This document shows, one piece after another, positions 9,597 to 24,735 of a stretch of 31,385 nt of DNA (the stretch's first letter is position 1; each line of letters opens with the position of its first letter). The notes under the pieces were generated by a model, which was not told where the DNA came from, made no database searches, and saw nothing but the letters and a program-made list of their open reading frames with translations. Made by a program: the position numbers and the translations under genes. The stretch is from a virus (Duplodnaviria > Caudoviricetes). The stretch spans positions 1-31,385 of the IMG/VR virus record IMGVR_UViG_3300031857_017116, one strand, 5' to 3'.

Positions 9597-11659
9597 AGCG
9601 CCTCATTGAATCACACCTGACGTTTGCCTCCGATTACGAAGAGGACGCCTTCATTCAGCACGTCATCGCCGAGGTGAACGACAAACGCGACCTGATGGGC
9701 GTGCAGACCACCAGCCGGGAATACCGGGTGGGATCGACGCTTTACCGCTGGGACAACTACCAACTGGCCTTTGAACAGGACTTTGAACACAGGAAGGCGC
9801 AATGCCTGCTGTTCAAGGAAACCAACCTTTCCTTGAACGTGCCGATGACACCCGTTCTCCAGCACGGCGACAAGATGGCGAACGACCTGCTGGCCTCTGC
9901 GGCCTTTTTCGGCCCGGCAGCGGAGGGCACCGAGGATGAAAACCCGAGCATCGACACCCTTATGCGCCGACTGAAGAAGCGGGCGCAGGCCATCAACCTC
10001 AACGAAACAGGCAAAAAGGCCATGCAGGGGGCCTTGATTCGAGGCCAGGAAATCACCCGGGAAGGCCTAGCTGAGGCGTTTTATATGAAGCCCGTGGTTA
10101 TCCAGGGCGTCAAACTGGACGGCAAGACGCTGAAGGACAGCCAAGGCCAGCCTGTCTTAGCCTCCGACATCTGGATAGACGACCCGGCCTATCCCGAGCG
10201 GCAGGTTTTGCAGCGTGATCCGTCCGTTTGGGCTATCAAAGGCGCGGCTCTGGAGATGGCAAAGCCGCATGTGGTCATGCAGCGCACCAGCAAGGAACCC
10301 GGCTGCGAGGTGGCCGTGATCCATTACGGGGACTTCTTCTGCCATCCAAACGCCGCCAGCATCGACGCCAGCCCGGTTAAAGGCCACGTTTTCGCCGCCA
10401 ACCCTGGCGACCTGCTGATTTCCTACGACCCTGACACTAGGATCAAAGAGACGTATGACGCCTACAAAGAGGCTATCAAGACCAACAGCCTGCCAGGCGG
10501 AGATTACGAGAACTACACGGTTCGCGCCTCCCTGAACCGCATCCGTGACGGCGAGGACGAGAACACCCAGCGCCCGGCAGACCAAAGCCCAAACCGCTAC
10601 AAGCGCAGGACATACGTTGAATGCTGGATTCGCTACGATGCCGACAACGACGGCTACGACGAAAGCATTTATGTCCTGCTGGATTGGGACGCCAAAATCC
10701 CGGTTCACTACGAATACGCCTCCATCATCCTCCCCTGGAACGACAAGGAGCACCCGCACCCCTACACTTGTCACCGTATCTGGCCCAAGCTCCACCGCTG
10801 GACGGGCCGAGGCTACTATGAGCTTCTGGACACCTGGGCCGAGGTGGCCGATAAGATGCTGAACCGCATCGAGTTCGACGCCAACACCTCCGGCAACGTC
10901 ATCTTTGAGAACCCCCTTGCCACCCAGCAGGGCATTGACGGCGGCGGCATCCAGTTCCGCAACTCCGAAGGCTACCAGCTCCGGGCAGGCTTCACGGCCG
11001 ATGATGCCATGTCCGTCAAGACCGTCCAGCCCGCCAACATTGAGGTTTTTGGGCAGCTCATGGAAAAGGCCGTGGGCCGGGCCGAGATCAGCGCCGGCCT
11101 GACCAGCCCGGCCGAGGCCAGCGTGGCCGACGTGCCCGGCCAGGACACCCTTGGCGTGGCGAAGATTCTCGAGAACACCAGCAACCAGTCTCTACGCGCC
11201 CGGGAATCCGAAATAGTGATCGGCCTGCAATCCATGCTGCGGGCATTCATCGACATCGAGCTTTACACCATCACCAACACCAAGGCAGGCATGGCCGCCC
11301 TCATGGAGCAGGTAGGCCAGGAAGAAGGGACGGCCCTGCTGGAGTGGATCAAGACGTTCCCGCAGGACGTGTCCAACGTGTTCGAGGTGTCCCTGACCAA
11401 GGCGCATTCAAGCCAGATGGTCGAAACCGGACAGGCCATTATCAACGTCCTGAACCAGTTCGCCGCCCTGGCACCGCCCATGCAAAACGCCCTAGCCCGT
11501 CAGTATGGCAACATCCTGAAGGGCATCGGCGAGCCGAATCCCGAGGAAACCCTGGCCGCCATGCAGCAGGCCTCCGTTGAAATCGCCCAGGCCCAAGCCG
11601 AGGCCGCAGCCCAGCAGGCCCAGGACGGCCAGACACAACCGCCACCACCTAACCGATGA
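9593..11659 (+). CDS. Portal protein (P22/podovirus-like)
   Basis: 688 aa with ECWIRYDADNDGYDE motif, WTGRGYYELL and a TLGVAKILENTSNQSLR helix, plus a Q/A-rich C-tail typical of podoviral portals. Lies in a structural gene context. Confidence 0.8.
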   Translation: MKRLIESHLTFASDYEEDAFIQHVIAEVNDKRDLMGVQTTSREYRVGSTLYRWDNYQLAFEQDFEHRKAQCLLFKETNLSLNVPMTPVLQHGDKMANDLLASAAFFGPAAEGTEDENPSIDTLMRRLKKRAQAINLNETGKKAMQGALIRGQEITREGLAEAFYMKPVVIQGVKLDGKTLKDSQGQPVLASDIWIDDPAYPERQVLQRDPSVWAIKGAALEMAKPHVVMQRTSKEPGCEVAVIHYGDFFCHPNAASIDASPVKGHVFAANPGDLLISYDPDTRIKETYDAYKEAIKTNSLPGGDYENYTVRASLNRIRDGEDENTQRPADQSPNRYKRRTYVECWIRYDADNDGYDESIYVLLDWDAKIPVHYEYASIILPWNDKEHPHPYTCHRIWPKLHRWTGRGYYELLDTWAEVADKMLNRIEFDANTSGNVIFENPLATQQGIDGGGIQFRNSEGYQLRAGFTADDAMSVKTVQPANIEVFGQLMEKAVGRAEISAGLTSPAEASVADVPGQDTLGVAKILENTSNQSLRARESEIVIGLQSMLRAFIDIELYTITNTKAGMAALMEQVGQEEGTALLEWIKTFPQDVSNVFEVSLTKAHSSQMVETGQAIINVLNQFAALAPPMQNALARQYGNILKGIGEPNPEETLAAMQQASVEIAQAQAEAAAQQAQDGQTQPPPPNR

Positions 11660-12003
11660 CACCCGCCGAAACAGCCCGCGCCCATGAACTGCTTGTCCAG
11701 CTTGAAAACAGCGAGGCATTCAATGAACTGATCGTCAAGCCCTACACCGAGCACGCCGCCGGGGCATTGCGCCGGGCCATCGCCGAGGCCGTCAAGCCCG
11801 CCGGGCCGGTCAAGCAGGGCGAGCCAGTCGATCCGGCCAAGATCAGGAATCCGCAGATTGTCTGCGACTGCCTCCGCGAGCACGCCCTTTACAACGAGGT
11901 TGCCACCCTGGTTTCCAGCCAGCTTGCCAGCATCCGGCAGGCCGCCGCCAAGCGCGAGGCCGCAGGGCGAAAAGACTTGCCAGAAACCACCGAACCCGCA
12001 TAA
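11656..12003 (+). CDS. Hypothetical protein (helical, portal-adjacent)
   Basis: 115 aa, ATGA-coupled to the portal, native codon usage. Confidence 0.75.
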   Translation: MTPAETARAHELLVQLENSEAFNELIVKPYTEHAAGALRRAIAEAVKPAGPVKQGEPVDPAKIRNPQIVCDCLREHALYNEVATLVSSQLASIRQAAAKREAAGRKDLPETTEPA

Positions 12004-12012
12004 TCAAGACCA

Positions 12013-12378
12013 ATGAATTTGTTCCCCGAACGCTACTACAACCCTCGCGGCGGTGATGCCGTTGCCAAGGCCCGCACGTTTGTGGAAGTGGCCTCACCGG
12101 ACACTGAAACCCTGGTTGCCGCCCCGTCCGGCACGGTTCGCATTGCCGTGTTCTCGGTCGAGATTCGCTCTGACGTGGATGCTACTGTTGTTTTCAAGTC
12201 CGGCACCACGGCCATTTCCGCCACGGAATACGTCGCGGCCTCTGGCGGCTCCAACATGGGCAGCCCTGACAACCAGATGGCCCTCTTCAAGGCCACGGCA
12301 GGCGAGGCCCTGAATGTGACCACCACAGGCACCGGCAACGTCTCTGTTTCAATCACCTACGCCATCATCCCCGGCTAA
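12013..12378 (+). CDS. Hypothetical beta-rich virion structural protein
   Basis: 121 aa, rich in T/S/A/V with beta-strand periodicity; TAATG coupling to the next gene. Confidence 0.7.
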   Translation: MNLFPERYYNPRGGDAVAKARTFVEVASPDTETLVAAPSGTVRIAVFSVEIRSDVDATVVFKSGTTAISATEYVAASGGSNMGSPDNQMALFKATAGEALNVTTTGTGNVSVSITYAIIPG

Positions 12379-12815
12379 TGGCTAACAATCTGGTCCTACT
12401 CGGCGCAGGCACAAGCGGCTCAGGCACGCTTACGCCGCCGACAGTGGCACCTGTTTTGACGGTGGACGCCGATCCTGGAAGCTCTGTTGCCTTACTTGAA
12501 TGGACAGCCAGCAATAAATCGGGCTCAGCAGGGTTTGGTTACAATGTCTATCGAGGCACAAATACACCACCTATTCCAGGCGTTGACAGCCCAGTTTTTT
12601 CAACAGGCCCAAATACATTATCTTCATCTGATAATGTCTCAGCCGCCGCAGGAGAAACATACTACTACATAGTAGTTCCATTCAACGATGCTGGGGAGGG
12701 GCCGAGTAGCAATACAGCCAGTGTTATTTTGCCGGGGGAGTCTAATCGCCTCCTGCTAAACACGGGAGGCCACGTTCTTCTCAACCAAACAGGCGACCTT
12801 TTGATTAATGGCTAA
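12378..12815 (+). CDS. Fibronectin type III domain virion protein
   Basis: Pattern L-EWTAS..GYNVYRG..SSSD..GETYYYIVVPFNDAGEG..SN is a typical FN3 signature. C-terminal LLLNTGGHVLLNQTGDLL motif. Confidence 0.75.
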   Translation: MANNLVLLGAGTSGSGTLTPPTVAPVLTVDADPGSSVALLEWTASNKSGSAGFGYNVYRGTNTPPIPGVDSPVFSTGPNTLSSSDNVSAAAGETYYYIVVPFNDAGEGPSSNTASVILPGESNRLLLNTGGHVLLNQTGDLLING

Positions 12816-14382
12816 TTCGCTCATCACAAACCTCACAGACAGGGCCACGCTTGACGGCACCGAAGAAATACCGCTCAACCTGCCGGGCACGCCGGACGTT
12901 GACCGCAAGGCCACTATTGCCGCCGTCAAGACCTACGCGCAGGCCGACCTAGGCACGGCCGCCTTTGCCGACACGGGCGATTTTGCCACGGCCGCCCAGG
13001 GCGCTTTGGCCGATACCGCCGTCCAGCCCGCCGACATCGGAACCGCCGCCGCCGAGGATGTCGGATACTTTGCCACAGCAGCGCAAGGCACCAAGGCGGA
13101 CACGGCCTTGCAGCCTGCCGAGGTGAAATCCAGCAACTTCACCGCCGCGAATGACGGGCTTTATGTCGTTGTGGCGTCCGCAACCGTCACAGACCCAAGC
13201 CCTAGCGAGGGCAAGGGATTTACGGTTGTTGTCCGCAACGGCACTGCCACCATTGGCGGCACCGGATACAGCACGGCAGGCAGCCAGATCAGGCGGCTTT
13301 TCCATTCCGGGGCCTGGGCAACCTACGTTGACGTTCTTACCACCGATTCCCGCCTCACGGACGCCAGGACGCCCACGGCCCATGCCTCCAGCCATGTCAC
13401 GGCAGGCTCCGACAAGATCAGGGACGCCAGCGCCAGCCAGGACGGCCTGATGACCACGGCTTACGCTTCCAAGCTGGACGGCATTGAGGCGGCGGCGGAT
13501 GTCACCGACGCGGGGAATGTTGGCTCTTCCATCCACGGGGCCACGGCCAAGACCACACCCGTAGATGCTGATACAATGCCGCTTATTGACTCGGCGGCCA
13601 GCAACGTCCTGAAAAAAGTCACTTGGGCAAACATCAAGGCCACGCTCCAAACGGCCTACGATGCGCTTTACTCCAAGGTAGGAAGCGTTTCCTCTTCTGG
13701 CCTGACCATGACCACTGCCCGCCTGCTTGGCCGGACCACGGCCAGCACGGGCGCGATTGAGGAACTGACGGCCACGGCGGCCACGGCCTTCTTAAACGCC
13801 ATGGTGGGAGACTCCGGCTCTGGCGGCACCAAGGGTCTTGTGCCTGCGCCGGCGGCAGGCGATGCGGCAGGAGGCAAGTATCTGAAGGCTGACGGCTCTT
13901 GGGCCACTGTTTCCGCCGGATCAACGGCATGGTCATCCGTGACTGGCAAACCGACCACCAAATGCCTGACATCCGACGTGACATCAAACAGCACCAGTTT
14001 GGCGGATGTGACGGGGCTGCCAGTCACGATCAGCGCCACAGGCACCTACAAGTTTGAGTGGGTCGGGGCGTTTACGTCCAACACCACGACTGAAGGACTG
14101 ACGATTGCCATGAATGGGCCGAGCAGCTCTTTCATTTATTTCTCCGTCGCGGTAGCCCTTTCGACCAACTACGTCAATGGCTACACGGTCTATTCATCCT
14201 GGGACACGGGTTCTGTGGTCGCTACTACCGGGGGGGCAACCGCCCGTGAGTTCCGTGTCACCGGCGTGTTCACGGCCACAAGCACAGGGACTATAGCCCC
14301 GCGTTTTTCCGCCGAAAGTGGCGGAGGCAACTCGGTTTCCATCAAAGGCGGCTCCTGGTTCACCGTCACTCCTGCCGATTAA
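12808..14382 (+). CDS. Tail fibre / receptor-binding protein
   Basis: 524 aa, A/T/S/G-rich. Chain of fibre motifs (ATAAQGALADTA, DSRLTDARTPTAHASSH, DGLMT..KLDGIE, RLLGRTTASTGAIEE, GLVPAPAAGD..YLKADGSW) followed by a C-terminal beta-sandwich head. Confidence 0.8.
   Translation: MANSLITNLTDRATLDGTEEIPLNLPGTPDVDRKATIAAVKTYAQADLGTAAFADTGDFATAAQGALADTAVQPADIGTAAAEDVGYFATAAQGTKADTALQPAEVKSSNFTAANDGLYVVVASATVTDPSPSEGKGFTVVVRNGTATIGGTGYSTAGSQIRRLFHSGAWATYVDVLTTDSRLTDARTPTAHASSHVTAGSDKIRDASASQDGLMTTAYASKLDGIEAAADVTDAGNVGSSIHGATAKTTPVDADTMPLIDSAASNVLKKVTWANIKATLQTAYDALYSKVGSVSSSGLTMTTARLLGRTTASTGAIEELTATAATAFLNAMVGDSGSGGTKGLVPAPAAGDAAGGKYLKADGSWATVSAGSTAWSSVTGKPTTKCLTSDVTSNSTSLADVTGLPVTISATGTYKFEWVGAFTSNTTTEGLTIAMNGPSSSFIYFSVAVALSTNYVNGYTVYSSWDTGSVVATTGGATAREFRVTGVFTATSTGTIAPRFSAESGGGNSVSIKGGSWFTVTPAD
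12946..13119 (+). repeat. Two tandem 87-bp (29 aa) repeats in the tail fibre
   Basis: DLGTAAFADTGDFATAAQGALADTAVQPA / DIGTAAAEDVGYFATAAQGTKADTALQPA. Confidence 0.85.
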
Positions 14383-14385
14383 ACC

Positions 14386-14820
14386 ATGAAACTCACCGAC
14401 CACATCCGACTCATCTGGCCCACGCGTCATTTCATCGCCGTTGGTGATGACATCACGTTCCACGACGGCCAGCCCATGCCGACACAGGCCGAACTCAACG
14501 CCACGCGGGCGCAGGCCGAGGCACTGTTTGCCGCAGAGCAGGCCGCCAACCAAGAGCAGCCGCAGCCTGCCCTGACCGTGCCTGGAGCGGCTTTCCTCCA
14601 GGCCATAGGCCGCACGCTTGAAATCGCTCTCAAGGCCAAAATCAACGAGATTCCAAACCTGGACACCAGGCGGCACATGATGCTTTACCTGGAATATCCG
14701 TATTTTGTGTCCAACCATCCAGTAATCGCGCAGATTGCCGCTACCATGGGCAAGACGGATGCAGAAGTTTACGCTTACTTTGAAGCCGCCCACGCCATCG
14801 CATACCCATCTGGACAATGA
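14386..14820 (+). CDS. Putative tail fibre assembly/chaperone-like protein
   Basis: 144 aa directly after the fibre gene; N-terminal IRLIWP..PMPTQAEL and C-terminal HPVIAQIAATMG..EV..YFEAA motifs resemble fibre-adjacent phage proteins. Confidence 0.55.
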   Translation: MKLTDHIRLIWPTRHFIAVGDDITFHDGQPMPTQAELNATRAQAEALFAAEQAANQEQPQPALTVPGAAFLQAIGRTLEIALKAKINEIPNLDTRRHMMLYLEYPYFVSNHPVIAQIAATMGKTDAEVYAYFEAAHAIAYPSGQ

Positions 14821-14831
14821 AAACGCATGGA

Positions 14832-14893
14832 GTAGGCCGAAATTCTAGGCAAGGAGGCTTTTTCTCCTCGCCTTACGGCCCGGAATCGGCTAC
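14832..14893 (+). other. Intergenic imperfect RNA hairpin
   Basis: gtaggccga pairs with tcggctac, enclosing aggcaaggag / ctcctcgcct. Confidence 0.45.
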
Positions 14894-14918
14894 TTGCAAT
14901 CAACCCCATTCAAACGCG

Positions 14919-15296
14919 ATGCACGTTCCCGAACCTTTCCAGACCATCATGCACGACATGCCTGCCTATGTTCAGGCCGCCATGGCAACCGGAGCCGCCG
15001 CAGTCCTGGCCTTAGCTGATGTGGCCTGGCAGGCCATGACGGGGCAGGTGCCAAGCCCGCAGGAGGCCGGAGAGTGGAGCTTCTACGGGGTGCTGATCGT
15101 GGCGGTGATCGTGCTTTTCACGTCACTGGCGTCGGTGATCTACTGGGTGGCAACCAAGGGCCTTAAAGCCTTCCAAGACCTGACGCAGGCCATGGAGAAG
15201 ATGAACGAAACACTGGACAAGCAGAACGACTACTTTGACGAGATCGCCAAGAACGCCGTCCGTTCCGCCCTGACAACCCCGCCCACAAAGGCATGA
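14919..15296 (+). CDS. Holin-like membrane protein
   Basis: Likely start at ATG14919 (MHVPEP) after an A/C-rich leader. Hydrophobic segments AAMATGAAAVLALADVAW and FYGVLIVAVIVLFTSLASVIYWVA precede a coiled coil. Lies upstream of the endolysin. Confidence 0.55.
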   Translation: MHVPEPFQTIMHDMPAYVQAAMATGAAAVLALADVAWQAMTGQVPSPQEAGEWSFYGVLIVAVIVLFTSLASVIYWVATKGLKAFQDLTQAMEKMNETLDKQNDYFDEIAKNAVRSALTTPPTKA

Positions 15297-15722
15297 ATGA
15301 AAGAGGCGTCATTCATCACCGAGTTCCAGGCCCTTGACGTGGCCGAGGGCCAGCAGACCAACCTGCTGAAGCTGATCGCTCCGTTTTCCGTCTATTCCGC
15401 CGTTCTCGACGCCATCATCACGGCCCCCGAGGGCTTTACCTTCGACGGTGAGAGCATCCCGGCATGGCTTCATGGTCTCGTCCCGCCCTTCGGACAGTCC
15501 AAGCGCGGGGCCTGCATCCACGACTACCTTTATCGGCACCACGGCTACCGGACACCCGGCGGAGACTTCCATCCCGTCACCCGAGCCCAGGCCGACGCCG
15601 TTTACAAAGAGCTTGTCCAGGCCAAGGGACTGCCCGGCTGGCGGGCCAACATCCGCTGGGGCGTGCTCCGGCTGGTAGGCTGGGCGGCCTGGCGGGCCAG
15701 CTACAAGGAGGCCCGGCTATGA
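15297..15722 (+). CDS. DUF1353 family protein
   Basis: ITAPEGFTFDGESIP..GACIHDYLY..TRAQADAVY..VLRLVGW matches the DUF1353 pattern, which is common near phage lysis genes. Confidence 0.8.
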   Translation: MKEASFITEFQALDVAEGQQTNLLKLIAPFSVYSAVLDAIITAPEGFTFDGESIPAWLHGLVPPFGQSKRGACIHDYLYRHHGYRTPGGDFHPVTRAQADAVYKELVQAKGLPGWRANIRWGVLRLVGWAAWRASYKEARL

Positions 15723-15835
15723 TCCTGGCGGCGGCAGCTTTGGGCGGCCTGGGATGGCTGCTTGGCACGGCGGCCTGCGTGTGCGTCGTGGTCGGCGTGT
15801 TCCTGCTGGTTGACAAGGGCCTGGGCGGGCGGTAG
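15719..15835 (+). CDS. Possible 38-aa membrane peptide
   Basis: MILAAAALGGLGWLLGTAACVCVVVGVFLLVDKGLGGR; ATGA overlap with the DUF1353 stop; its 3' end overlaps the endolysin promoter. Confidence 0.4.
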   Translation: MILAAAALGGLGWLLGTAACVCVVVGVFLLVDKGLGGR

Positions 15836-15838
15836 AAT
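15810..15838 (+). promoter_or_regulatory. Sigma70-type promoter, probably leaderless, for the endolysin operon
   Basis: TTGACA(15810-15)-N17-TAGAAT(15833-38)-N6-ATG(15845). Confidence 0.75.
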
Positions 15839-15844
15839 GCCGCC

Positions 15845-17572
15845 ATGCCCAAGACACCCGACAAACCCACCCTTCGCCGAGGAGACAAAGGCGAACAAGT
15901 CATGGCGTTGCAGTTCGCCCTTTCCTGGCAAAACCTGCTTGGCATCGCCAACGGCGAGTTTGGTTACAGGACCGAGGCCGCCGTTAAAGCCTTCCAGGCC
16001 AACAAGGGCCTCAAGCCAGACGGCATCGTTGGTCCGGCCACCTGGGCCGCCCTCGACGCCTTCACGGCCACGCTGGCCCCGGCCAAGCCTGCCGAGCCGC
16101 CCGCCATGGGGCTCACGTTCGCGGATTGGTTCGTGAAGATCGCCGGACGTGATCTGGGCAAGGTGGAGAAGCCCAAGAATAACATGGGCGAGTGGATCAA
16201 GAAGTTTTGGCCCTCCACGTCCTACCCCGACGGCTACGAGAACCGTGAGCCTTATTGTATTACAGGAGAAAATGAAATTCTAACGCCGTTGGGATGGGTG
16301 AGAATCGACTCCTATAAAGACGGGCCGATTGCTGTCGTAAACCCATCTACAGGAGAGGTTACTTTTGACCGCCCTCTTTCTTATATATCCAAAGAATATC
16401 ACGGAAAATGTCACCATATCAAAAACCAATGGCTCGACATTATCACCGACAGTGGGCACCGATGGTGGTCATACACAAGCTCACGTAGCAAGAACGCGTC
16501 CATATGCAAGGTGACGGACAAAAAAAGACACGCCATGATGCCCGTTTATCACGACGGGCCAGGAATCAATTTGTCTGATTCTGACATTAACTTTGCTGCG
16601 GCGTTTATTGCAGACGGCTACAAGAAAAAAAACCGAATTGAGTTTGGTGTTTCAAGGCTCCGCAAGATCGAGGCGCTGGACGCATACAACCCGAAAGGAA
16701 GGTGGATTGAAGGAAAAACGCACGGCCCAGTAACAAAAACAAAACGAACCTTTTTTTCATTCGCTATTCCTTCATGGCTTGAGGAATGTGTAAGTGTGGA
16801 CAAAGAAAAGCGCATTTCTATGCAATGGCTTTTGTCTATGACAAAAAGTCAAAAGGCGCATTTCGCGCAAAGGCTTATTTGGTGGGATGGACAGGCCTCT
16901 AGAGGCGAATTAACCGCAAAGAGAAAATCTCACGTTGATGCCGTGGCTCTAGCAGCTAGTTTAAGCGGGTTTTTGCCGACAGTCAGCAGTTATATATCGA
17001 CCTCATCTTTAAGCAAAGGCAACAGGCAGCACAGGGTAAATATTCGCCCAAACAAAAAAACGCGAGCCATTACTTATCCTCAAGATGTTGAGACGTATAT
17101 TGGCAAACATTATATGTATTGCTTTAGTGTGACAACAGGAGTTTTTATTGTCAGGGACAAAAACGGAAATATTACGCCTACTGGCAATTGTGCTGCCGCC
17201 ATGTCGTATTGGCTGGACACCACCGGCGACGAACTCGCCAAGGCCGGGATGCTGGAGGCCATGACGGGCATGAACGCCGCGCAGTTTGAGAAATGGCGCT
17301 GCCAGTCCGCCGCCGCCTTTGGCTGGCTGCCCTGGGCCAGGAAGGCCAAGGGCGTGACCGTGCTGCCGGACACCGCCGAGCCCAGGAAAGGGGATGTGGT
17401 TGTGTTCGACTTTTCGCACATCGGCCTTGTCTCCGGCGTGCCAAGAAAAGGCCGTGTCGCCACGATTGAGGCCAACACCGGGCCGAGCGGCGAGCGTGAC
17501 GGCGACGGATGCTGGCCCAAAGACCGCCCGCAGGAAGTGGCCCGTGCCTTCATTCGTTTCAGCTTCAAATGA
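15845..17572 (+). CDS. Endolysin: PG-binding_1 domain + CHAP-like amidase/peptidase, interrupted by an intein
   Basis: PTLRRGDKGEQVMALQ..GEFGYRTEAAVKAFQANKGLKPDGIVGPATWAAL is the PG-binding domain. The spliced catalytic domain reads NREPY|CAAAMSYW..GDVVVFDFSHIGLV..TIEANT (CHAP Cys/His/Glu-Asn pattern). Spliced length 264 aa. Confidence 0.88.
   Translation: MPKTPDKPTLRRGDKGEQVMALQFALSWQNLLGIANGEFGYRTEAAVKAFQANKGLKPDGIVGPATWAALDAFTATLAPAKPAEPPAMGLTFADWFVKIAGRDLGKVEKPKNNMGEWIKKFWPSTSYPDGYENREPYCITGENEILTPLGWVRIDSYKDGPIAVVNPSTGEVTFDRPLSYISKEYHGKCHHIKNQWLDIITDSGHRWWSYTSSRSKNASICKVTDKKRHAMMPVYHDGPGINLSDSDINFAAAFIADGYKKKNRIEFGVSRLRKIEALDAYNPKGRWIEGKTHGPVTKTKRTFFSFAIPSWLEECVSVDKEKRISMQWLLSMTKSQKAHFAQRLIWWDGQASRGELTAKRKSHVDAVALAASLSGFLPTVSSYISTSSLSKGNRQHRVNIRPNKKTRAITYPQDVETYIGKHYMYCFSVTTGVFIVRDKNGNITPTGNCAAAMSYWLDTTGDELAKAGMLEAMTGMNAAQFEKWRCQSAAAFGWLPWARKAKGVTVLPDTAEPRKGDVVVFDFSHIGLVSGVPRKGRVATIEANTGPSGERDGDGCWPKDRPQEVARAFIRFSFK
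16256..17188 (+). mobile_element. Intein (311 aa) with LAGLIDADG homing endonuclease
   Basis: Block A CITGENEILTPLGWVRI; block B IITDSGHRW; LAGLIDADG-like FAAAFIADGY and FAQRLIWWDGQ; block F YMYCFSVTTGVFIV; block G TGN followed by Cys+1. Visibly AT-richer than its flanks. Confidence 0.92.
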
Positions 17573-17820
17573 CCGAGGCCACCGTTGCCCGCGTTCTCTA
17601 TGAGCAAGTCGCCACCGCCGCCAAAGGCAACGACCACCACCAAGTCACCACGGTTGTCACCAGAGCCATGTGGCAGGTGTTCCTGCGAGCCTACGGCCTG
17701 CCCGAGGACGCCGAGCCCATCCAGTCCACGAACCGCCATAAGGCGCGGAGCGTGGCGGGCTCTCTCACTTTTGTCTTGGATGTCCCGGGCATGTGGGCTG
17801 TGTCACGTCTGACGTTATGA
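17569..17820 (+). CDS. Hypothetical protein (83 aa)
   Basis: MTEATVARVLYEQ...; ATGA overlaps with both the upstream and downstream genes. Confidence 0.65.
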   Translation: MTEATVARVLYEQVATAAKGNDHHQVTTVVTRAMWQVFLRAYGLPEDAEPIQSTNRHKARSVAGSLTFVLDVPGMWAVSRLTL

Positions 17821-18335
17821 GCTACAATCCCCCAAACGAGTTTTTTGGCGAGTCCCGTTCTTTCATGGAAACTTCGCCGCGTGTTGCCGTCCTGCGGTTT
17901 GTCCATCCGTCTGCAATCCTTGGAGAAGGCACGCGTGTCTGGCATTTTGCCGTGGTTCAGGATCGCGTTGTCACTGGCGAGCGTTGTTCCATTGGAAGCA
18001 ACGCCGAACTTAGCGCCGGCTGCATTCTCGGCTCAAACGTCCGCATCGGCCACGGCACCATCACCGCCCCCGGCATGAAGATCGGAGACAATGTTTTCAT
18101 CGGCCCAAACGTCACCTTTTGCGATGACGATTACCCAAAGGCCGGGAATACCGGCTATACACGCCGCCCGCCGCTAGTCATGGCCGGGGCCAGCATCGGG
18201 GCCGGGGCCGTCATCATGCCCGGCGTGACCATCGGCCAGGATGCTACCGTTGGGGCCGGGGCCTTGGTTTTGCACGACGTGCCAGATGGCGCAACCGTCT
18301 GGACAAAGGCCGAAACGATCACGCGCCAGCCATGA
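17817..18335 (+). CDS. Hexapeptide-repeat (LbH) sugar N-acyl/acetyltransferase, WxcM/WbpD/FdtC-like
   Basis: VHPSAILGEGTRVWHFAVV..IGDNVFIGPNVTFCDDDYP..GASIGAGAVIMPGVTIGQDATVGAGALVLHDVP; ATGA-coupled start at 17817. Confidence 0.85.
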   Translation: MSYNPPNEFFGESRSFMETSPRVAVLRFVHPSAILGEGTRVWHFAVVQDRVVTGERCSIGSNAELSAGCILGSNVRIGHGTITAPGMKIGDNVFIGPNVTFCDDDYPKAGNTGYTRRPPLVMAGASIGAGAVIMPGVTIGQDATVGAGALVLHDVPDGATVWTKAETITRQP

Positions 18336-19675
18336 TTTCCGTCATCACAAACGAGCCCTCTTTTGTCGTGGTCTGCCGGTCTGGGGGAGATTACACCCCG
18401 GATCACGCCGCCTGCCTGCACCGCCAGTTTCAGGCGTTCAACACCGACAAACGGTTCCAGTTCTGGTGCCTCACCGACACGCCAACCGAGCCTTGGCACA
18501 TCCGCCTAGAAACCGACTGGCCGGGATGGTGGGCTGTTCAAGAGGCTTGGCGCTTCACGGGGCCGACAATCCTGACCGGCCTCGACACCCTTTTTGCCCG
18601 CCAGTTGACGCCTTTCACGGCACTGGCTCTGGCCTGCCCGCCAGACATGGTATGGGGCACCCGGGATTTCTACCGCCCGAACGAATGGGCAAACGCCGTG
18701 ATGGTCTGGAACGGCGACCACCGGCAAGTCACCGAGGACATGGAGCCGGAACTGCGAAAGTCGGAGATGGGCCACACGGCCGCCCGGCTTGCTGTCATGG
18801 GCGTGCGCCTTGGCCTGCTAGACGACGTGCTGGACGGCATCTTGTCCTACAAAAAGCACGTTCACGTTGCTGGATCGGCGTCCAGCGAGGCCAACGCCCG
18901 GCTTGTGGCCTGGCACGGGATGCCGAGGCCGTGGCATGACAAGTGCGCCGGGACATGGGCGGGCCGGATGTATCGCAGCTTCATGGAGGGCGGGGACGCC
19001 GCCGCCTACCAACTCCTCGCGCCAAGCTCGACATCGCACAAGACGACCCAGTTTCATTTCGCCTGGACAGCTCTAGGTGATGAGGCCGCCTCATTGAGCC
19101 GCCGCATGAACGCAAAATGCTGGCTTACCTACCGGGCGGTTGACGGTGAGATCACCTTTACCGACTGGCTGGCCTGCGTTGCCCCTGCCGTGGCTGCACC
19201 GCATGAAGAAACGCCTTTGGGCGTGCGGTGGAGAGTCAGCCAACTTACGGGAGAGGCTTACCTGATGATTTTGAACGGCAGGCTGGACGAGGCCCGGCTG
19301 AGAATGATCGAGGTAAACGACATCGTTTATGCAGGAGGCTCTGATCTTTGGCCGCCGTGCGTCTTGAACTGGCTTCGATGCGCCGTGTTGAACCAATACG
19401 CTTTGCATCTGGAAGGCGTGAACATCGCCGATTCAACCGCCCGAGTCGTGGAAAACTGGCGAGGCATGGCCCACAAATACGACTGGCACAAATGGCCCAT
19501 GCGCGTTGACGAGATGATTCACGACATACGAGCCTTGAACGTCCTTGCCGCCATCACGCACAAAAGGGAAAAAGCATTCTGGCTTGCGCCCAAGAACCTT
19601 GTCGGCAACAAGGAAATCTTTCACCGATGCCTTTTGAAGCTCGGCGAAGGAAACCCAAAGGCCATTTTCACATGA
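18332..19675 (+). CDS. Glycosyltransferase-like protein (GT-A-like N-terminal domain + unknown helical C-terminal domain)
   Basis: VVVCRSGGDYTPDH..FWCLTD..WPGWWA..GLDT..RDFY..NAVMVWNG..ILSYKKH..LVAWHGMPRPW resembles phage GT8-like proteins. Confidence 0.7.
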   Translation: MISVITNEPSFVVVCRSGGDYTPDHAACLHRQFQAFNTDKRFQFWCLTDTPTEPWHIRLETDWPGWWAVQEAWRFTGPTILTGLDTLFARQLTPFTALALACPPDMVWGTRDFYRPNEWANAVMVWNGDHRQVTEDMEPELRKSEMGHTAARLAVMGVRLGLLDDVLDGILSYKKHVHVAGSASSEANARLVAWHGMPRPWHDKCAGTWAGRMYRSFMEGGDAAAYQLLAPSSTSHKTTQFHFAWTALGDEAASLSRRMNAKCWLTYRAVDGEITFTDWLACVAPAVAAPHEETPLGVRWRVSQLTGEAYLMILNGRLDEARLRMIEVNDIVYAGGSDLWPPCVLNWLRCAVLNQYALHLEGVNIADSTARVVENWRGMAHKYDWHKWPMRVDEMIHDIRALNVLAAITHKREKAFWLAPKNLVGNKEIFHRCLLKLGEGNPKAIFT

Positions 19676-20343
19676 GCGAGATTTCAGACATCCTTGGCGT
19701 CACCATCGCCAGCCCTGGCTATTTTGACATGGCCTACGAAGCCGCAGCCCGTTTTCGCAAATACACGGAACTGGACGCCATGGTAATCACCACGGACCGC
19801 CAGGAAAGCTACGACATGAAGTATGTCCTGCCTCTCCTGGGAACGCGCACGCTGGTGTTTTTTGACGCCGACCTGTGGTTCATTCGCCCGGCGAGCCTTG
19901 CCCGGTTCGCCAACCTAAACGGAATCGCCGCCGTCCAGGACGTGACCCGGCACAGCATCCACGGCACTTTCTGCCTGCAAGATGCCCTAGCCCTCGACAT
20001 GCCACCGGATCGCTACGTCAACACGGGCTTCATGGTCATCAACCCCCGCGTGCCCGCCGTGGGCGAGGCATTCAGGCTGGCTTCCGCCCTCATGGCCCAG
20101 CGCCGGGCCGGAGAGATCAACATTCTCGACAAGACCGAGCAAAGCCTGCTCAATGCGGCCTTTTACCGCTCCGGCGTGGACATGCACTTTTTGCCGGATG
20201 AGTGGAACTTCTGGCCGATGGCCTGGAAGCACAAGTTCTACGACCGCCTGCCGCTGGAGCCCTACTGCATTCACGCCGCCGGAGTGCCCCTGGCCGACAA
20301 GGCCGCCTTCCTGGCCCGCCACGCCGCCGTCTTTGAGGCCTGA
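19672..20343 (+). CDS. Glycosyltransferase, GT8-like
   Basis: LVFFDADLWF (DxD), YVNTGFMVIN, EQSLLN, LPDEWN, IHAAG motifs; ATGA-coupled start at 19672. Confidence 0.8.
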   Translation: MSEISDILGVTIASPGYFDMAYEAAARFRKYTELDAMVITTDRQESYDMKYVLPLLGTRTLVFFDADLWFIRPASLARFANLNGIAAVQDVTRHSIHGTFCLQDALALDMPPDRYVNTGFMVINPRVPAVGEAFRLASALMAQRRAGEINILDKTEQSLLNAAFYRSGVDMHFLPDEWNFWPMAWKHKFYDRLPLEPYCIHAAGVPLADKAAFLARHAAVFEA

Positions 20344-20391
20344 TGCCTCCCCCGCCGCCCGCCGGAACCTGCGGGCATAGAACAAAACGAC

Positions 20392-20631
20392 ATGCCTTAT
20401 ATCCTCCAAGAAACACCCGACGAGTCCTGTGTTTACCGCAGCACGGGCGCAAAAGTGAAACCCATTGTCACCCTCAAAGATGAGCACGGCGGCGTTAGTC
20501 ACATCATTGAAGATGACCACTGCTACGTTCTTCTGAACGGCAGCGAGGAGAAAGGGTTCGCGCCGACGCCATATTGGTATCCTGAAGCCGTTGAGGTTCT
20601 TCGCGGAATGCCTCCGTTGGACGCCGCCTAA
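20392..20631 (+). CDS. Hypothetical protein (79 aa)
   Basis: Clean ORF with an A-rich leader and protein-like composition. Confidence 0.6.
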   Translation: MPYILQETPDESCVYRSTGAKVKPIVTLKDEHGGVSHIIEDDHCYVLLNGSEEKGFAPTPYWYPEAVEVLRGMPPLDAA

Positions 20632-20720
20632 ATCCCTTTGCCTGCTCTCGGCCCCTCGTCCAGACTGGCCCATGGAAACAGGGGCCTTTAGGCCTGGGGC
20701 AGGCATCTCAAAACTTTGTC

Positions 20721-20749
20721 TTGCAAAGTCGTCAATAACTACACACAAT
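20721..20749 (+). promoter_or_regulatory. Possible sigma70-type promoter for the scaffold/capsid genes
   Basis: TTGCAA-N17-CACAAT in an AT-rich intergenic gap, 9 nt before ATG20759. Confidence 0.45.
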
Positions 20750-20758
20750 ACAGCCATC

Positions 20759-21715
20759 ATGTCCGACACCCCGACACCCACCCTTGAACAGATGCTTTAC
20801 GGCAATCTGGAGAAAGACCCTGCCGCCCTGGCCGCCGACTTCACCGCCGCCGCTGGCGTGGCCCAACCGCCCGCCGCAAACGCCAAGCTCCTGCCAGACC
20901 CGGACGACTCCGCCGGACATGACCCCGCCGACCCTGTGGCCGCCGCCGAGGCCGCCGAGGCCGCCAAAGACGCAGGCCAGTATCCGCTTGAGCCTGACGC
21001 CGCCGTGACCTCGCCCGAGGTGTCCACGTCCGCCACCGATACCACCCAGCCCGAGGCCAGCCCGGCCCCGGCCGCCGTTCCTGCGCCCGCCCACGAGCCG
21101 CAGGACTTGGCCCCGGTGTTTTCGCAGGCCCTTCAGGACTACAACGCCGCCGCCACCGCCGCCCAGGAAGCCGCCCAGCGCCTCGCCGACCTCCAAAGCA
21201 ACGCCGAGGGCATTGTTGAGTTCACCCCCGAGATGGCCGCCGCCCTGGAAGACAAGATGAAGGCCGAGGCCAACGCTGAACGCGCTTTTGAGGAGATCGG
21301 CGACGACGCCTTGGCCCTCGCCATCCAGCAGTTTCCAGAACTGGCCGACGACAACAGCCCGGCCACCATCGCCGTCAAGACCGCCCTGGAGGCCAGCCCC
21401 GACCTTGCCGTTCGCTCGCCCACCGCCGTTGCCGAGCTTGGCGTGAAGATCGCCCAGCAGCTCCGCGCCCAGGCCAAGCAGGCCGCCCCGCCCGCCGCCC
21501 AGCCCAAGCCCGCCCCCGGCCCCGTGCCTGCCAAGGCCGCCGCCCCCGCCAGCGCCATGACTTCCCATGCCCAGGCCCAGCGCCCCGCGCCCGGCCAGCC
21601 CGCCACGCCCGACATCGTGACACAAGTCGCACAAGCTGCCCAGGCCGGAAGCCTGAAAAGCCTGTTCGGCTCCGTTCTCGGTGCCGGCGCTCCTGTCGGT
21701 ATTCGCATGTCCTGA
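20759..21715 (+). CDS. Capsid scaffolding protein (putative)
   Basis: Start reassigned to ATG20759 (MSDTPTP; 318 aa). Acidic A/P-rich N-terminus, central coiled coil, located immediately upstream of the MCP. Confidence 0.7.
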   Translation: MSDTPTPTLEQMLYGNLEKDPAALAADFTAAAGVAQPPAANAKLLPDPDDSAGHDPADPVAAAEAAEAAKDAGQYPLEPDAAVTSPEVSTSATDTTQPEASPAPAAVPAPAHEPQDLAPVFSQALQDYNAAATAAQEAAQRLADLQSNAEGIVEFTPEMAAALEDKMKAEANAERAFEEIGDDALALAIQQFPELADDNSPATIAVKTALEASPDLAVRSPTAVAELGVKIAQQLRAQAKQAAPPAAQPKPAPGPVPAKAAAPASAMTSHAQAQRPAPGQPATPDIVTQVAQAAQAGSLKSLFGSVLGAGAPVGIRMS

Positions 21716-21718
21716 TAG

Positions 21719-21830
21719 CTGCCTGGCCTAGAGCCACGGCAGACTCCCGTGTGGAGTGACAACCTGACAACAGACAAACAGGGCCGAGCAAGCCCTGCGG
21801 TTAGTTCTGTTTTCACATTTCACTCCACAC
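21719..21830 (+). promoter_or_regulatory. Structured RNA leader of the major capsid gene
   Basis: Small hairpin ctgcctggc/gccacggcag, then a long stem: gtgtggagtga (21749-59) perfectly complementary to tcactccacac (21820-30), with inner aacaga/tctgtt and cagggc/gccctg. Confidence 0.65.
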
Positions 21831-21834
21831 ACCA

Positions 21835-23370
21835 ATGGCTACCTACACCGCAATCGACGCCCAAACGGTCGCTCAGATCGTTGCGCAGTCCCCCACCTAC
21901 GCCCGTCAGATCATCTGGGTTTCTTCGATCCAGATGGACGAAGAACGTTACAACCCGTTCTCGGAACTGATGGGAGGCCTTGGCTCCGCCAAGCCCATCA
22001 AGGAAGTTCTCGACACCTCCAAAGTGCGAGGCAACACCATCGTTTTCACCCAGGAAGCCGGACTCGGCGGCAAGGGCGTGGAAGGCAACACCTCGCTGAT
22101 CGGCGCTGAAGAAGCCCGCAAATACAGCCAGTTCACGCTGACCATCGGCCTCCACCGCCACGCCGTCGCCGAAACCGTCACCACCAAAGACCTGACGTTC
22201 ATCGGCACGACCTTCGACCAGAGCGCCCGCCGTGGCCTCAACGAATGGGTCCAGCGCCTCAAGTGCGACTGCATCGAGGCCACCATGCTCGGCAGCCTGG
22301 AAACCTACAACACCCTGTATGCGGGCAACAAGGCCAACATCAATGCCCTGACCTCCACGGATGTCGTCACCAAGGCGACCATCTCGCAGGCCAAAATCAT
22401 GGCGAACGGGATCAAGATGAAGCAGATCGAGGTTGCCCGGGCGAAGGGCGGTCAGCGCATCCTGAAGTATTTCTTCCAGGGTAACGACTACCTGTTCCAG
22501 GGCCTCCGCGAAAACTCCACCTGGGAAAGCCTCCTGGCGACCGCTGGCGACCGTGGTGACACGAACTACCTCTTCTCCGGCTTCCTGCCCGAGTATGACG
22601 GCGTTCTGCTCAACAACTGGGCCGTCTCCAACACCGCCGCCGACGCCGCCCAGGGTGCGTTCTGCGCCCCCCGTGCCTACCTCGGTGAGGAATACGCGGC
22701 CAAGGCCACGACCACCACGCTTGTGGCGATCAAGGGCGGCGGCTTCAACGGCAGCTCCACGCTGACCACCAACGCCATCGCCAAGACCCGGAACGACTAC
22801 TTCCGCTACTTCCCTGGCGCTGGCTTCACCGCCTTCGAACAGACGTTCATCTCGTCCACCTCCTCGGCCCGTTACCTCATGGTCATCCACGGCAGCGGCT
22901 CCGACATCGGCAAGTTCAGCTTCTTCAAATACACGACCTGCGACGGTTACACCGTCTCGGCGACTGGCATGGAGCGCCTGGGCTCTACCTCCTCCGGCGG
23001 CTACGTCACCACCCTGACGGGCTCCACGATCACCTGGGGCACCGCTCCCTGGACCTCGGCTTACCTCTCTGAGGCTGCCATCCCGGTCGGCTCGCTCATC
23101 ATCCCCTGCAACAGCAAGGGCCAGCCCTACGTCTGCGGCTACTTCATGGGCAACGACGCCGTGTATTGCGGCTACGGCTCTGTGAACGGCAAGCCCAGCA
23201 CGGCCATGGGCCAGCGCGTCACTGAACAGCAGGACTACACGAACCGCTTCGGTATCGGTGTCCAGATGGTCTGGGGTGCCACCGCCTACAAGAACGCCGC
23301 CCTCGTCAAGAACGGCTACCTTGTGGTTTATGGTGCCTGGAACGCCCCCGGTATGCCGGAGGTCAGCTAA
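21835..23370 (+). CDS. Major capsid protein, N4-gp56/DUF4043-like
   Basis: DTSKVRGNTIVF..LGGKGVEGNTSLIGAEE..FTLTIGLHRHAV; WESLLATAGDRG..NYLFSG..EYDGVLL; EQQDYTNRFGIG. Strong codon bias suggests high expression. Confidence 0.88.
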   Translation: MATYTAIDAQTVAQIVAQSPTYARQIIWVSSIQMDEERYNPFSELMGGLGSAKPIKEVLDTSKVRGNTIVFTQEAGLGGKGVEGNTSLIGAEEARKYSQFTLTIGLHRHAVAETVTTKDLTFIGTTFDQSARRGLNEWVQRLKCDCIEATMLGSLETYNTLYAGNKANINALTSTDVVTKATISQAKIMANGIKMKQIEVARAKGGQRILKYFFQGNDYLFQGLRENSTWESLLATAGDRGDTNYLFSGFLPEYDGVLLNNWAVSNTAADAAQGAFCAPRAYLGEEYAAKATTTTLVAIKGGGFNGSSTLTTNAIAKTRNDYFRYFPGAGFTAFEQTFISSTSSARYLMVIHGSGSDIGKFSFFKYTTCDGYTVSATGMERLGSTSSGGYVTTLTGSTITWGTAPWTSAYLSEAAIPVGSLIIPCNSKGQPYVCGYFMGNDAVYCGYGSVNGKPSTAMGQRVTEQQDYTNRFGIGVQMVWGATAYKNAALVKNGYLVVYGAWNAPGMPEVS

Positions 23371-23383
23371 GGTCACGCCTGAC

Positions 23384-23412
23384 GGCCGCCCGGCCTAACC
23401 CGCCGGGCGGCC
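23384..23412 (+). terminator. Strong GC hairpin after the MCP (terminator/stabiliser; no U-tract)
   Basis: ggccgcccggc-ctaaccc-gccgggcggcc, a perfect 11-bp stem. Confidence 0.55.
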
Positions 23413-23455
23413 TGAAGGCACAACACCCACACGCAACCCTCCATATACCACTTCA

Positions 23456-23998
23456 ATGCTTTCCATCACACCCATCCCGACCAACCCGGCCGATCTTCCG
23501 GCCCTGCTTGGTTCCAGTCTCACGACTTCGCATCGCGTTCTCGTCTATGACAGCCGGAAGCCTTCGGGCGACCCGAACATCATGGCCGACATGACGCTGG
23601 CGGAGTTTTTCAGCGGCGTGAATTCCCTCGTCAACGCAGGCACCATTTCCGGGCCTCGTTCCGACGTTGTGGAAGCCGTCACTGCCACCGTCGGAGGCGC
23701 TTCCATCGCGGCGGCGTCCAGTCACGTCACAGTTACCAGCTCGGATGCCAACCACATCGTCATTCTGCCGGCCCCGGTTGTGGGCAAGCAGCTTGTCATC
23801 AATGTCGGCGCGACCGGGTTTGAGCTTCGCAGTTCCAGTCCTGCAACCATCGCCATCAACGGCGGCAGCGGTGCAAATGCTGAGTCCGCCATTGCGGCAG
23901 ACTCCACATGCTACCTTACATGCGTCTCCGCGACTGCATGGAAAGGATGGTTCATGGATGCAGACGGCGACCTCGCCAAGATCGAGGCGGCGGCCTAA
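23456..23998 (+). CDS. Putative capsid decoration / head fibre protein
   Basis: 180 aa immediately after the MCP; beta-rich VTVTSSDANHIVILPAPVVGKQLVI..INGGSGA..W motif. Confidence 0.55.
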   Translation: MLSITPIPTNPADLPALLGSSLTTSHRVLVYDSRKPSGDPNIMADMTLAEFFSGVNSLVNAGTISGPRSDVVEAVTATVGGASIAAASSHVTVTSSDANHIVILPAPVVGKQLVINVGATGFELRSSSPATIAINGGSGANAESAIAADSTCYLTCVSATAWKGWFMDADGDLAKIEAAA

Positions 23999-24011
23999 CC
24001 AGCCCGGCCCC

Positions 24012-24070
24012 GGCCAAACAATCAGCCAGCCCGGCCTTGCCTTTCCGGCGGGCCGGGCTTATTGTTGGCC
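24012..24070 (+). terminator. Hairpin (possible intrinsic terminator) overlapping a sigma70-like promoter
   Basis: agcccggcc..ggccgggct followed by tattgtt, extended by aacaat/attgtt. The same bases read TTGCCT(24037)-N17-TATTGT(24060). Confidence 0.55.
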
Positions 24071-24093
24071 TACGACATCAAGCACCCGACACC

Positions 24094-24735
24094 ATGATTA
24101 CTCACTTCCAGGTCACATTCCCGCAGGAGCCCGGCGCATCCTTCCCCATTGCCGCCAGCAACGGCCGCACGCTGCCCGTCCGCGCCCGCTCGGACGTTCG
24201 CCCCACCAACTTCCCCACGCGCATCCTGACCCGCGAGGAATGGGACGACCTTCGCCGCCCGGCCGGGCCGTATCTGGCATCCTACCAGCCCAAGCGCCCG
24301 GTGCCGGACGTGGACTTTGAGGCCGAGGACGGCAGCCTGCACAAGACGGCCGAGGCCTGTCTGGCCCATGAATTGAAGGCCCGGTTTGGCGTGGAGACGC
24401 TGGCCGAGGTGGAGGGGCTTATGAAGGTTTTGTCTGACAAGAACAAATTGACCGTTGACGATGTCCAGGCAGCTATTCAAGAAGCCACGGAAACCAAGGA
24501 TTCCGCCGCCAGTTTTACAGCCGATGCGGCAGCTATTACCGCCGACCCCGAGCCATCCGCGCCCACCTACGACGAGGCCCGCCGCCTGCTGGCCTCCGCC
24601 CTTAGCCAGCGCGGCCTGAAGCCCGCCGAGGCCGCCAGGGCAACCGGCCTAACCAGCAAGCAATGCCGCGAAGTGGTGGCTGCCTACCCTGCTGAGTTCC
24701 GCGAGCACGCGGGCAAGCTGTTCCTCAATAGCTGA
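24094..24735 (+). CDS. Hypothetical protein with C-terminal wHTH-like domain
   Basis: Start reassigned to ATG24094 (MITHFQ; 213 aa). C-terminal LASALSQRGLKPAEAARATGLTSKQCREVV is HTH-like. Confidence 0.65.
   Translation: MITHFQVTFPQEPGASFPIAASNGRTLPVRARSDVRPTNFPTRILTREEWDDLRRPAGPYLASYQPKRPVPDVDFEAEDGSLHKTAEACLAHELKARFGVETLAEVEGLMKVLSDKNKLTVDDVQAAIQEATETKDSAASFTADAAAITADPEPSAPTYDEARRLLASALSQRGLKPAEAARATGLTSKQCREVVAAYPAEFREHAGKLFLNS

Follow-up and report, generated by a model that had tools for sequence, protein, structure and literature searches.

An intein at the putative active-site cysteine of a phage CHAP lysin is probably a selfish homing element

A foreign insert divides a phage lysin gene

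We analyzed a 31,385-nucleotide stretch of viral DNA (Caudoviricetes; IMG/VR record IMGVR_UViG_3300031857_017116), referred to here in its full length as the window. It is a phage fragment carrying portal, major capsid, and polyvalent-protein genes, and the sequencing runs that match it best are freshwater and "fungus" metagenomes. At positions 15845 to 17572 (plus strand), it encodes a 575-amino-acid precursor of a modular phage lysin, in which a PG_binding_1 domain is followed by a CHAP domain split by an intein. The N-extein of 137 amino acids (15845 to 16255, plus strand) ends in NREPY, with Tyr at position -1, and its N terminus has no hydrophobic signal or anchor segment. The 311-amino-acid intein (16256 to 17188, plus strand), made of a Hint splicing domain and a LAGLIDADG homing endonuclease, occupies residues 138 to 448 of the precursor, starts with CITG, and finishes with TGN. 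Its removal would join the N-extein to a C-extein of 127 amino acids, and the predicted spliced lysin has 264 amino acids.

The codon use of the insert is foreign to the window. Its GC content is 44%, and its GC content at third codon positions (GC3) is 0.44, versus 62 to 65% and 0.80 in the exteins, with sharp borders. GC3 ranges from 0.68 to 0.85 in 13 other genes of the window. Contigs from an RNA library (run X14) cover parts of the gene, among them the first junction, with a depth of 2 to 3, which does not demonstrate transcription.

The insert has the fold and motifs of an intein

An earlier note on this DNA, made from the sequence alone, had read the insert as an intein and suggested a hidden Markov model (HMM) search for Hint and LAGLIDADG domains. 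That search was negative: taken alone, the insert had no match among Pfam, PHROG, and NCBIfam models or PDB sequences. Curated intein HMMs do not recognize it, and its relatives P0136, P0208, and P0258 reach PF14890 only below the cut-off. This miss is a sensitivity limit, and it is outweighed by fold and motifs.

An AlphaFold model of the insert is confident throughout (pLDDT, the per-residue confidence, 95.6; pTM, the whole-model score, 0.92). The Hint fold in this predicted model is built from the N- and C-terminal parts of the insert. Foldseek places it with the TliVMA intein (E value of 1.9e-14), and it matches end to end the LAGLIDADG inteins TliVMA and PhoVMA (7qsu, 7qss, and 7qst), PI-PkoII (2cw7), PI-PfuI (1dq3), and PI-SceI (1vde), with Foldseek E values of 2e-14 to 2e-9 and Z scores of 18 to 23. 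The best structural comparison has a Z score of 23.4, with a root mean square deviation (rmsd) of 4.1 over 288 aligned residues. The endonuclease part structurally matches PI-SceI and I-DmoI, and a protein atlas puts the insert in intein and LAGLIDADG clusters at 0.90 to 0.95. The window intein shares Cys1, His B10, the terminal Asn, and Cys+1 with the five inteins named above. However, it is only 10 to 18% identical to them and is compact, with Asp at B7, Cys at F4, and Gly at G6. Its host is a phage wall hydrolase, whereas theirs are ATPases, polymerases, or reductases.

All splice junction residues (C1, H68 at B10, N311, and C+1) are in place. Cys1, the block A nucleophile (16256 to 16258, plus strand), is Cys in 61 of 61 other delimited inteins at the same site of related proteins (the site-mates, described below). 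Block B (16448 to 16465, plus strand) holds Asp65 at B7, replacing the usual Thr, His68 at B10, and Trp70 at B12. The LAGLIDADG endonuclease domain lies at 16577 to 17041 (plus strand; limits approximate, from the model). It has a recognizable pair of LAGLIDADG helices bearing acidic catalytic residues, as well as the block D lysine. The predicted catalytic residues Asp120 (nucleotide 16613), Lys185 (16808), and Asp211 (16886) are all present (plus strand). Cys289 in block F (F4; 17120 to 17122, plus strand) is conserved: all 61 site-mates and 78 of the 79 other relatives have Cys at this position. Block G ends in Thr309-Gly310-Asn311 (17180 to 17188, plus strand), where Gly replaces the penultimate His before the terminal Asn. 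By fold, motifs, and relatives, and by the ungapped empty allele P0002 described below, the insert is an intein with Hint and LAGLIDADG domains, as the earlier note had said, and it is predicted to be self-splicing.

The intein directly precedes the predicted active-site cysteine of a CHAP lysin

Pfam detects two domains in the precursor: PG_binding_1 (PF01471; amino acids 16 to 70, positions 15890 to 16054, plus strand; E value of 6.5e-15) and CHAP downstream of the insert. The former structurally matches the binding domains of phiKZ gp144 and the AP3 endolysin. All eight PHROG matches to the lysin are endolysins (8/8). The CHAP match (PF05257) is marginal, scoring 26.5 bits in the precursor and 26.9 bits in P0002, a natural intein-free allele, against a gathering cut-off of 26. 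In P0002 the profile spans residues 132 to 233, and 79 of 113 empty homologues match the profile at an E value of 0.01.

CHAP enzymes have a Cys-His-Glu triad. The predicted triad here consists of the Cys at +1 (C449 in the precursor and C138 after splicing; 17189 to 17191), the His of SHIGLV (H525 and H214; 17417 to 17419), and, as the third residue, the Glu of TIEAN (E542 and E231; 17468 to 17470), all on the plus strand. C138, H214, and E231 are invariant among the 113 empty homologues, Cys is at +1 in 62 of 62 intein-bearing hosts, and Cys and His are both kept in all 62. A model of P0002 (pLDDT of 91) matches CHAP endolysin domains over residues 90 to 264 with Z scores of 11.8 to 12.9: LysIME-EF1 (6ist; Z score of 12.9, rmsd of 2.8, 130 residues aligned), PlyGRCS (8h1i; 12.6), and LysGH15 (4olk; 11.8). 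Foldseek assigns this model to CHAP with a probability of 1.0, yet with an E value of only about 2e-3. The His and TIE-N motifs align with PlyPy. The invariant triad, the CHAP-fold match, and the PlyPy alignment therefore identify the +1 residue as the predicted catalytic Cys. This upholds the claim that the intein sits exactly at that residue.

The lysin shares the CHAP fold and the triad with LysK CHAPK (4csh), LysGH15, PlyGRCS, LysIME-EF1, and PlyPy (5udm). Unlike those endolysins, which are intein-free and come from phages of Gram-positive hosts, it has an N-terminal PG_binding_1 domain, as do phiKZ gp144 and the AP3 endolysin. A peptidoglycan-binding domain plus a catalytic domain, without a signal peptide, fits a holin-released phage endolysin. 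Two membrane-protein open reading frames (ORFs) upstream, neither with a holin or spanin profile match, are possible holin-like candidates. No second lysin was found among 27 further hand-picked ORFs (at least 100 amino acids) of G001, a 49-kb copy of this phage. Relatives in bacterial genomes number 32, are only 33 to 46% identical (Betaproteobacteria, Chitinophagaceae, Verrucomicrobia, and others), and give no host assignment. In proteins P0293 to P0297, which are intein-free, the same CHAP subfamily is fused to PF00182 (glycoside hydrolase 19).

Closely related phages carry an empty gene

The earlier note had proposed a search for intein-free alleles, and these turned out to be common. Searching shorter proteins with the C-extein yielded 127 matches, of which 120 were listed. 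The first was P0002, with 264 amino acids, 95% identity, and EPY-CAAAM without a gap (hyphens mark the splice junction here and below). At the DNA level, sites are empty in the loci L004 to L007, and two other runs have contigs from which exactly 933 nucleotides are missing. IMG/VR holds three identical filled copies and four empty relatives. The filled allele forms a single 90% cluster of 2 members. Its sister 90% cluster has 19 members, and all 15 of those listed are empty, 14 of them at 91 to 98% identity to the joined exteins. The phage G002 is also empty; its alignment with the window extends over 21 kb, with a mean identity of 92% and most blocks at 95 to 98%. In the empty phages L004 to L006, the flanking genes are 90 to 100% identical to those of the window.

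Four further runs, from four studies, contain the empty form only (4/4). They were picked from 24 listed at word shares of 0.15 to 0.32, a choice that favors empty alleles. In run X8, the filled allele has a depth of 55 and a diverged empty allele a depth of 2.6. Several samples give good coverage of the carrier phage. No intein was found in 139 CHAP relatives (120 short by construction, 14 cluster members, and 5 long). A control search among proteins of 316 to 1007 amino acids returned only the lysin's own cluster and five others, all with precomputed PF00182. This search was word-limited and failed to pick up P0122, P0129, and P0146, which are intein-bearing hosts of 35% identity. A word-indexed search for a close relative of the intein found its own cluster only. 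Since near-identical phages carry an empty gene, the intein is dispensable and was probably gained recently.

The intein belongs to a lineage specific to the CHAP site

Using phmmer, we compared the intein with 1.84 billion representatives, ranked by the full-length query. There were 1430 matches, and the best 150 (24 to 36% identity) were examined. Judged by junction sequence, 69 of these 150, and 29 of the first 30, occupy the CHAP site, [P/A/S/N][W/Y]-C...GN-C. Pfam matches CHAP at an E value of 0.001 in 47 of the 69 same-site proteins. The remaining hosts are DNA polymerase A and primase (mostly labeled by junction motifs), DUF444, RtcB, DnaB, and NAPRTase. The proteins P0180, P0195, P0219, P0198, and P0258 carry related inteins, their hosts being DUF444, RtcB, and nicotinate phosphoribosyltransferase.

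Both intein ends could be set automatically in 140 of the 150, and the 10 left out included 8 of CHAP type. In FastTree trees, which are unrooted and drawn at the midpoint, 62 CHAP-site inteins, that of the window included, form one side of a branch with SH-like support of 97, whereas shuffled labels need 46 changes. Three inteins added by hand bring this branch to 65. The terminal branch of the window intein is long (1.13, versus a median of 0.72). The delimited site-mates all have 302 to 331 amino acids, and the endonuclease Asp-Lys-Asp is retained in 61 of 62. CHAP-site inteins are more alike than their hosts (median identity of 32% versus 22%), and intein identity and extein identity are only weakly correlated (rho of 0.15; Mantel P value of 0.005).

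Eight further IMG/VR loci, found by junction DNA patterns alone, all had full-length inteins in CHAP genes (8/8), and three of these are the same protein. No mini-intein was seen at the CHAP site among the delimited site-mates or these eight loci. The best viral-structure match of the intein model is UniProt A0A8S5NZS4, a 561-amino-acid "TIGR02594 family protein" of Myoviridae sp. ctLnO19 (E value of 2.6e-28; TM score of 0.90). Most likely, this is a publicly deposited CHAP-type protein that bears a similar insert; it is named for its host domain only, and the insertion site is deduced.

The nearest relatives in 50,697 GenBank phage records are primase, polymerase, helicase, reductase, and methylase inteins (best 40 of 155 matches and 60 spread over 172). 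None of the records spans 80% of a CHAP-site precursor. Among the matches examined, the closest are the mycobacteriophage cluster-A primase (TOPRIM) intein (for example, in Turj99 and Switzer) and coliphage DNA polymerase inteins, which align over the full length at 25 to 26% identity and share Cys F4, a conserved block F Arg, and the Gly-Asn end. However, these inteins have replication hosts and belong to a separate branch: among 79 non-CHAP relatives, B7 is Thr in 76 and B12 is never Trp. A second intein of this family was not found in the window, G001, or G002.

The splicing center combines features of class 1 and class 3

By its signature, the intein would be assigned to class 1, although the assisting residues are not the usual ones. 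Where class 1 has Thr B7, Asp F4, and His G6, this intein has Asp65, Cys289, and Gly310. Asp occupies B7 in 53 of the 61 site-mates, whereas none of the 79 other relatives has it there. F4 is Cys throughout the CHAP-site inteins, G6 is Gly, and His is missing from blocks F and G here and in 55 of 62 CHAP-site inteins. Such assisting-residue variants are described in class 1 (PMC4031507, PMC5050341, and PMC3196547), and class 1 inteins with Cys F4 are among them (PMC3196547). Therefore, the odd assisting residues do not exclude class 1.

The intein also has the complete class 3 triplet Trp B12/Cys F4/Thr G5 (WCT; W70, C289, and T309), as do 17 other CHAP-site inteins (18/62) and none of the 79 non-CHAP relatives. 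In this it resembles class 3 inteins, for which MP-Be DnaB is the prototype. AceL NrdHF (6zgq) is the best endonuclease-free structural match (Z score of 17.8, rmsd of 2.1, 143 residues aligned; the next scores 15.1) and the best PDB sequence match of a profile built from a site-mate (E value of 0.0035). Unlike class 3 inteins, however, which have no N-terminal Cys, Ser, or Thr, it has Cys1, and Cys1 is conserved in its lineage. Tori et al. define class 3 by WCT and the lack of an N-terminal nucleophile and already record three WCT inteins with Ser1 or Cys1 (PMC2807308). The combination of Cys1 and WCT is thus rare but known. Gly or Asp at B7 occurs in characterized class 3 inteins, according to Hoffmann et al. 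(PMC7891396).

A site-mate, P0264, has a CHAP-site intein (residues 38 to 359) with Pro1 instead of Cys, Cys F4, an open frame, and a recognizable CHAP C-extein. Its sister is the Cys1 intein P0211 (46% identity). P0264 is a possible case of a switch from class 1 to class 3, but it is a single case and may be dead. Given the class-3-like center and this Pro1 relative, a C1A mutant may not be splice-dead and is unsafe as a sole control. Of the two splice-dead controls in the earlier note, C1A and the terminal Asn-to-Ala change, the former is thus doubtful. These features, and the lineage at the site as a whole, are absent from that note. Trp B12 and Thr G5 appeared to be coupled (18/19; Fisher P value of 1e-5). 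However, supported branches contain only three phylogenetically independent pairs (sign test P value of about 0.5), too few for the coupling to be established.

A promoter-like sequence and membrane-protein genes precede the lysin

A near-consensus sigma-70-like site, TTGACA-17-TAGAAT (15810 to 15838, plus strand; 11/12 match), ends 6 nucleotides before the lysin ATG and is the top sigma-70 match within positions 11400 to 31385. From its sequence, this predicted promoter would yield a leaderless mRNA made by host polymerase. It is kept in the empty phages L004 to L006, with the -35 box also in L007, and it is older than the intein. It overlaps a 38-amino-acid membrane ORF, and coding constraint may contribute to its conservation. 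A similar promoter was absent before the first ATGs of six other CHAP-intein loci, where the best match was 9/12, 19 nucleotides away. The promoter is therefore lineage-specific and offers no general explanation. Further sigma-70-like sites lie at 11977 to 12004 and 25172 to 25200, and the three sites end 6 to 8 nucleotides before an ATG (that of the lysin and those at 12013 and 25207). Most genes of the window lack a Shine-Dalgarno sequence, and leaderless or Shine-Dalgarno-less translation is likely.

The 38-amino-acid ORF (15719 to 15835, plus strand; hydropathy of 2.6), with one predicted membrane segment, is conserved in relatives and is a holin-like candidate. A second candidate is a 159-amino-acid membrane protein (14817 to 15296, plus strand; hydropathy of 2.5), with a weak match to phrog_1009 (function unknown), which is 91 to 99% identical in the empty-allele phages L004 to L006.

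Other parts of the window vary among relatives. At 17817 to 20343 (plus strand), 3' of the lysin, are a hexapeptide acyltransferase gene and two glycosyltransferase-like genes. In L004, L006, and L007, the acyltransferase gene is gone and the first glycosyltransferase gene is replaced, which marks a variable glycosylation cassette. The end of a 524-amino-acid fiber-like gene and the start of the next gene (13905 to 14560, plus strand) do not align with L004 to L006, and a swapped receptor-binding tip is likely. A gene at 33 to 9596 (plus strand) encodes a 3187-amino-acid polyvalent protein with InPase, LPD5, ART-PolyVal, and LPD1 domains, which over part of its length is only about 74% identical to the otherwise 95 to 98% identical G002. 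The longer copy G001 carries two free-standing HNH endonuclease-like genes (L055, 654 to 1418, minus strand, and 4823 to 5521, plus strand).

Discussion

We favor the explanation, with a probability of roughly 80%, that the intein is a selfish homing element that was recently gained just before the predicted catalytic Cys of a CHAP lysin and splices out constitutively. The earlier note had allowed for such an insertion as its alternative. Common empty alleles, endonuclease residues kept in nearly all site-mates, and foreign codon use together give the element a selfish profile.

The 575-amino-acid precursor would be made in the cytoplasm. It should be inactive until it is spliced, because the intein ties up the amide of the Cys, and its 311 residues, in two domains, sit where the catalytic helix starts. 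This is expected of any active-site intein and is not regulation. Cys1 would initiate splicing, the catalytic Cys of the lysin would act as the +1 nucleophile, and Asn311 would free the intein, leaving a scarless 264-amino-acid lysin. In a co-infecting relative, the endonuclease would cut the empty EPY-CAAA site, and repair would copy the intein in. The sigma-70-like promoter at the ATG may permit expression of the endonuclease early enough for homing. The site may be favored because an invariant Cys can serve directly as the +1 nucleophile and also provides a conserved DNA target, and imprecise loss would be lethal to the gene. Inteins generally insert beside invariant active-site residues, according to Kelley et al., who also describe a phage intein with a penultimate Gly whose splicing was complete at time zero in a reporter (PMC5050341). 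An earlier review, as far as its accessible part goes, saw no evidence for a physiological role of inteins (PMC4031507).

The cost of the element may be low. In holin systems, the lysin is held in the cytoplasm, and its release by the holin sets the time of lysis. A lysin without an export signal would wait there, and minutes of splicing delay would not set lysis time.

Several points weigh against this explanation. Relative to L004 and L005, the substitutions near the site (three synonymous T changes at -10, -1, and +6) are no denser than elsewhere and give no clear co-conversion tract. The closest relative found for the intein is only 36% identical; hence, neither a recent jump between named hosts nor a dN/dS ratio is demonstrable. 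That intein and extein identities correlate positively, if weakly, shows a degree of co-inheritance or target restriction. Ranking by the full-length query under-counts CHAP-site mini-inteins (150 of 1430 matches). Fast splicing is borrowed from analogues, since the splicing center is unlike those of the class 1 inteins that have been tested: it has Asp at B7, lacks His in both block F and block G, and contains three close cysteines. Finally, several other inteins splice conditionally (PMC10663303).

The last points bear on the idea for which the locus was first singled out, that splicing times or licenses lysis. The intein would then be kept for slow or conditional splicing, perhaps redox-sensitive through Cys1, Cys289, and Cys+1, and the lysin would become active late or only in fit cells. 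The +1 nucleophile is indeed the predicted catalytic Cys, three cysteines lie close together among lineage-specific changes such as Asp B7, and the host-type promoter at the ATG could drive early production of the lysin, at a stage when restraint would be of use. Conditional splicing elsewhere also lends it some credit. However, the empty form is the common one among alleles 91 to 98% identical, with the same promoter and neighbors; the endonuclease is kept throughout, with no mini-intein in sight; and the same intein family occupies DNA polymerase A, primase, and other hosts. Moreover, for a lysin with no export segment, release rather than maturation should limit the rate. These observations go against the timer, which we consider very unlikely, and indirectly against fixation or domestication of the intein. 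It is just as doubtful that the CHAP-site inteins stand between class 1 and class 3 as living intermediates toward class 3, with a redox-sensitive Cys1/Cys F4/Cys+1 center that licenses an early-expressed lysin by splicing.

Two other explanations concern the fate of the element and the role of its host. The intein might have jumped once into this lineage and now be immobile or poorly splicing, a mildly costly passenger that will be lost. It is confined to a single 90% cluster, all IMG/VR copies are 100% identical, its terminal branch is long, and no second host has a similar intein. However, all predicted splicing and endonuclease residues are intact in an open frame, the model has high confidence along its whole length, and coverage of the carrier phage is good in several samples, so we think such a dead end quite unlikely. 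Alternatively, the host could be a virion-associated or other wall hydrolase, and splicing would bear on entry or assembly, not lysis. The gene has structural and glycosyltransferase genes as neighbors, profiles identify no holin or spanin, and some records call TIGR02594-type CHAP hosts of related inteins tail lysozymes. This is unlikely too, if less so, given the modular endolysin layout (N-terminal PG_binding_1 and C-terminal catalytic domain), the uniformly endolysin PHROG matches, the two membrane-protein genes just upstream, and the lack of a second lysin among the G001 ORFs searched. It is also compatible with selfish homing.

The element is of a textbook type, in an apparently unpublished host class and site. 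The earlier note had called cell-wall hydrolases rare intein hosts, which the literature bears out: full-text searching, over the texts it could reach, returned no paper on an intein in a lysin, CHAP domain, or peptidoglycan hydrolase. Intein surveys emphasize replication, recombination, nucleotide, and packaging proteins. A survey of 784 actinophage inteins lists 19 host proteins, including the tape measure protein but no lysin. Its accessible text does not mention lysin, CHAP, NlpC, or peptidoglycan, and its supplementary tables could still hold a hydrolase-domain site (10.1101/2025.01.02.630785). The word "lysin" is likewise absent from the accessible parts of Kelley et al. (PMC5050341) and of a review (PMC7765530).

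Because standard intein HMMs miss this lineage, CHAP-site lysins are mis-annotated as long CHAP proteins. Gating by splicing, if true, would add a new layer to the control of lysis; on present evidence this is unlikely. The insertion site is a ready-made handle for switchable endolysins. Cys1 together with WCT, Asp at B7, and the Pro1 sister provide natural test cases for the origin of class 3 chemistry. With at least 69 distinct inteins (50% clusters) at the catalytic Cys of wall hydrolases, the host range of inteins is widened to lysis enzymes.

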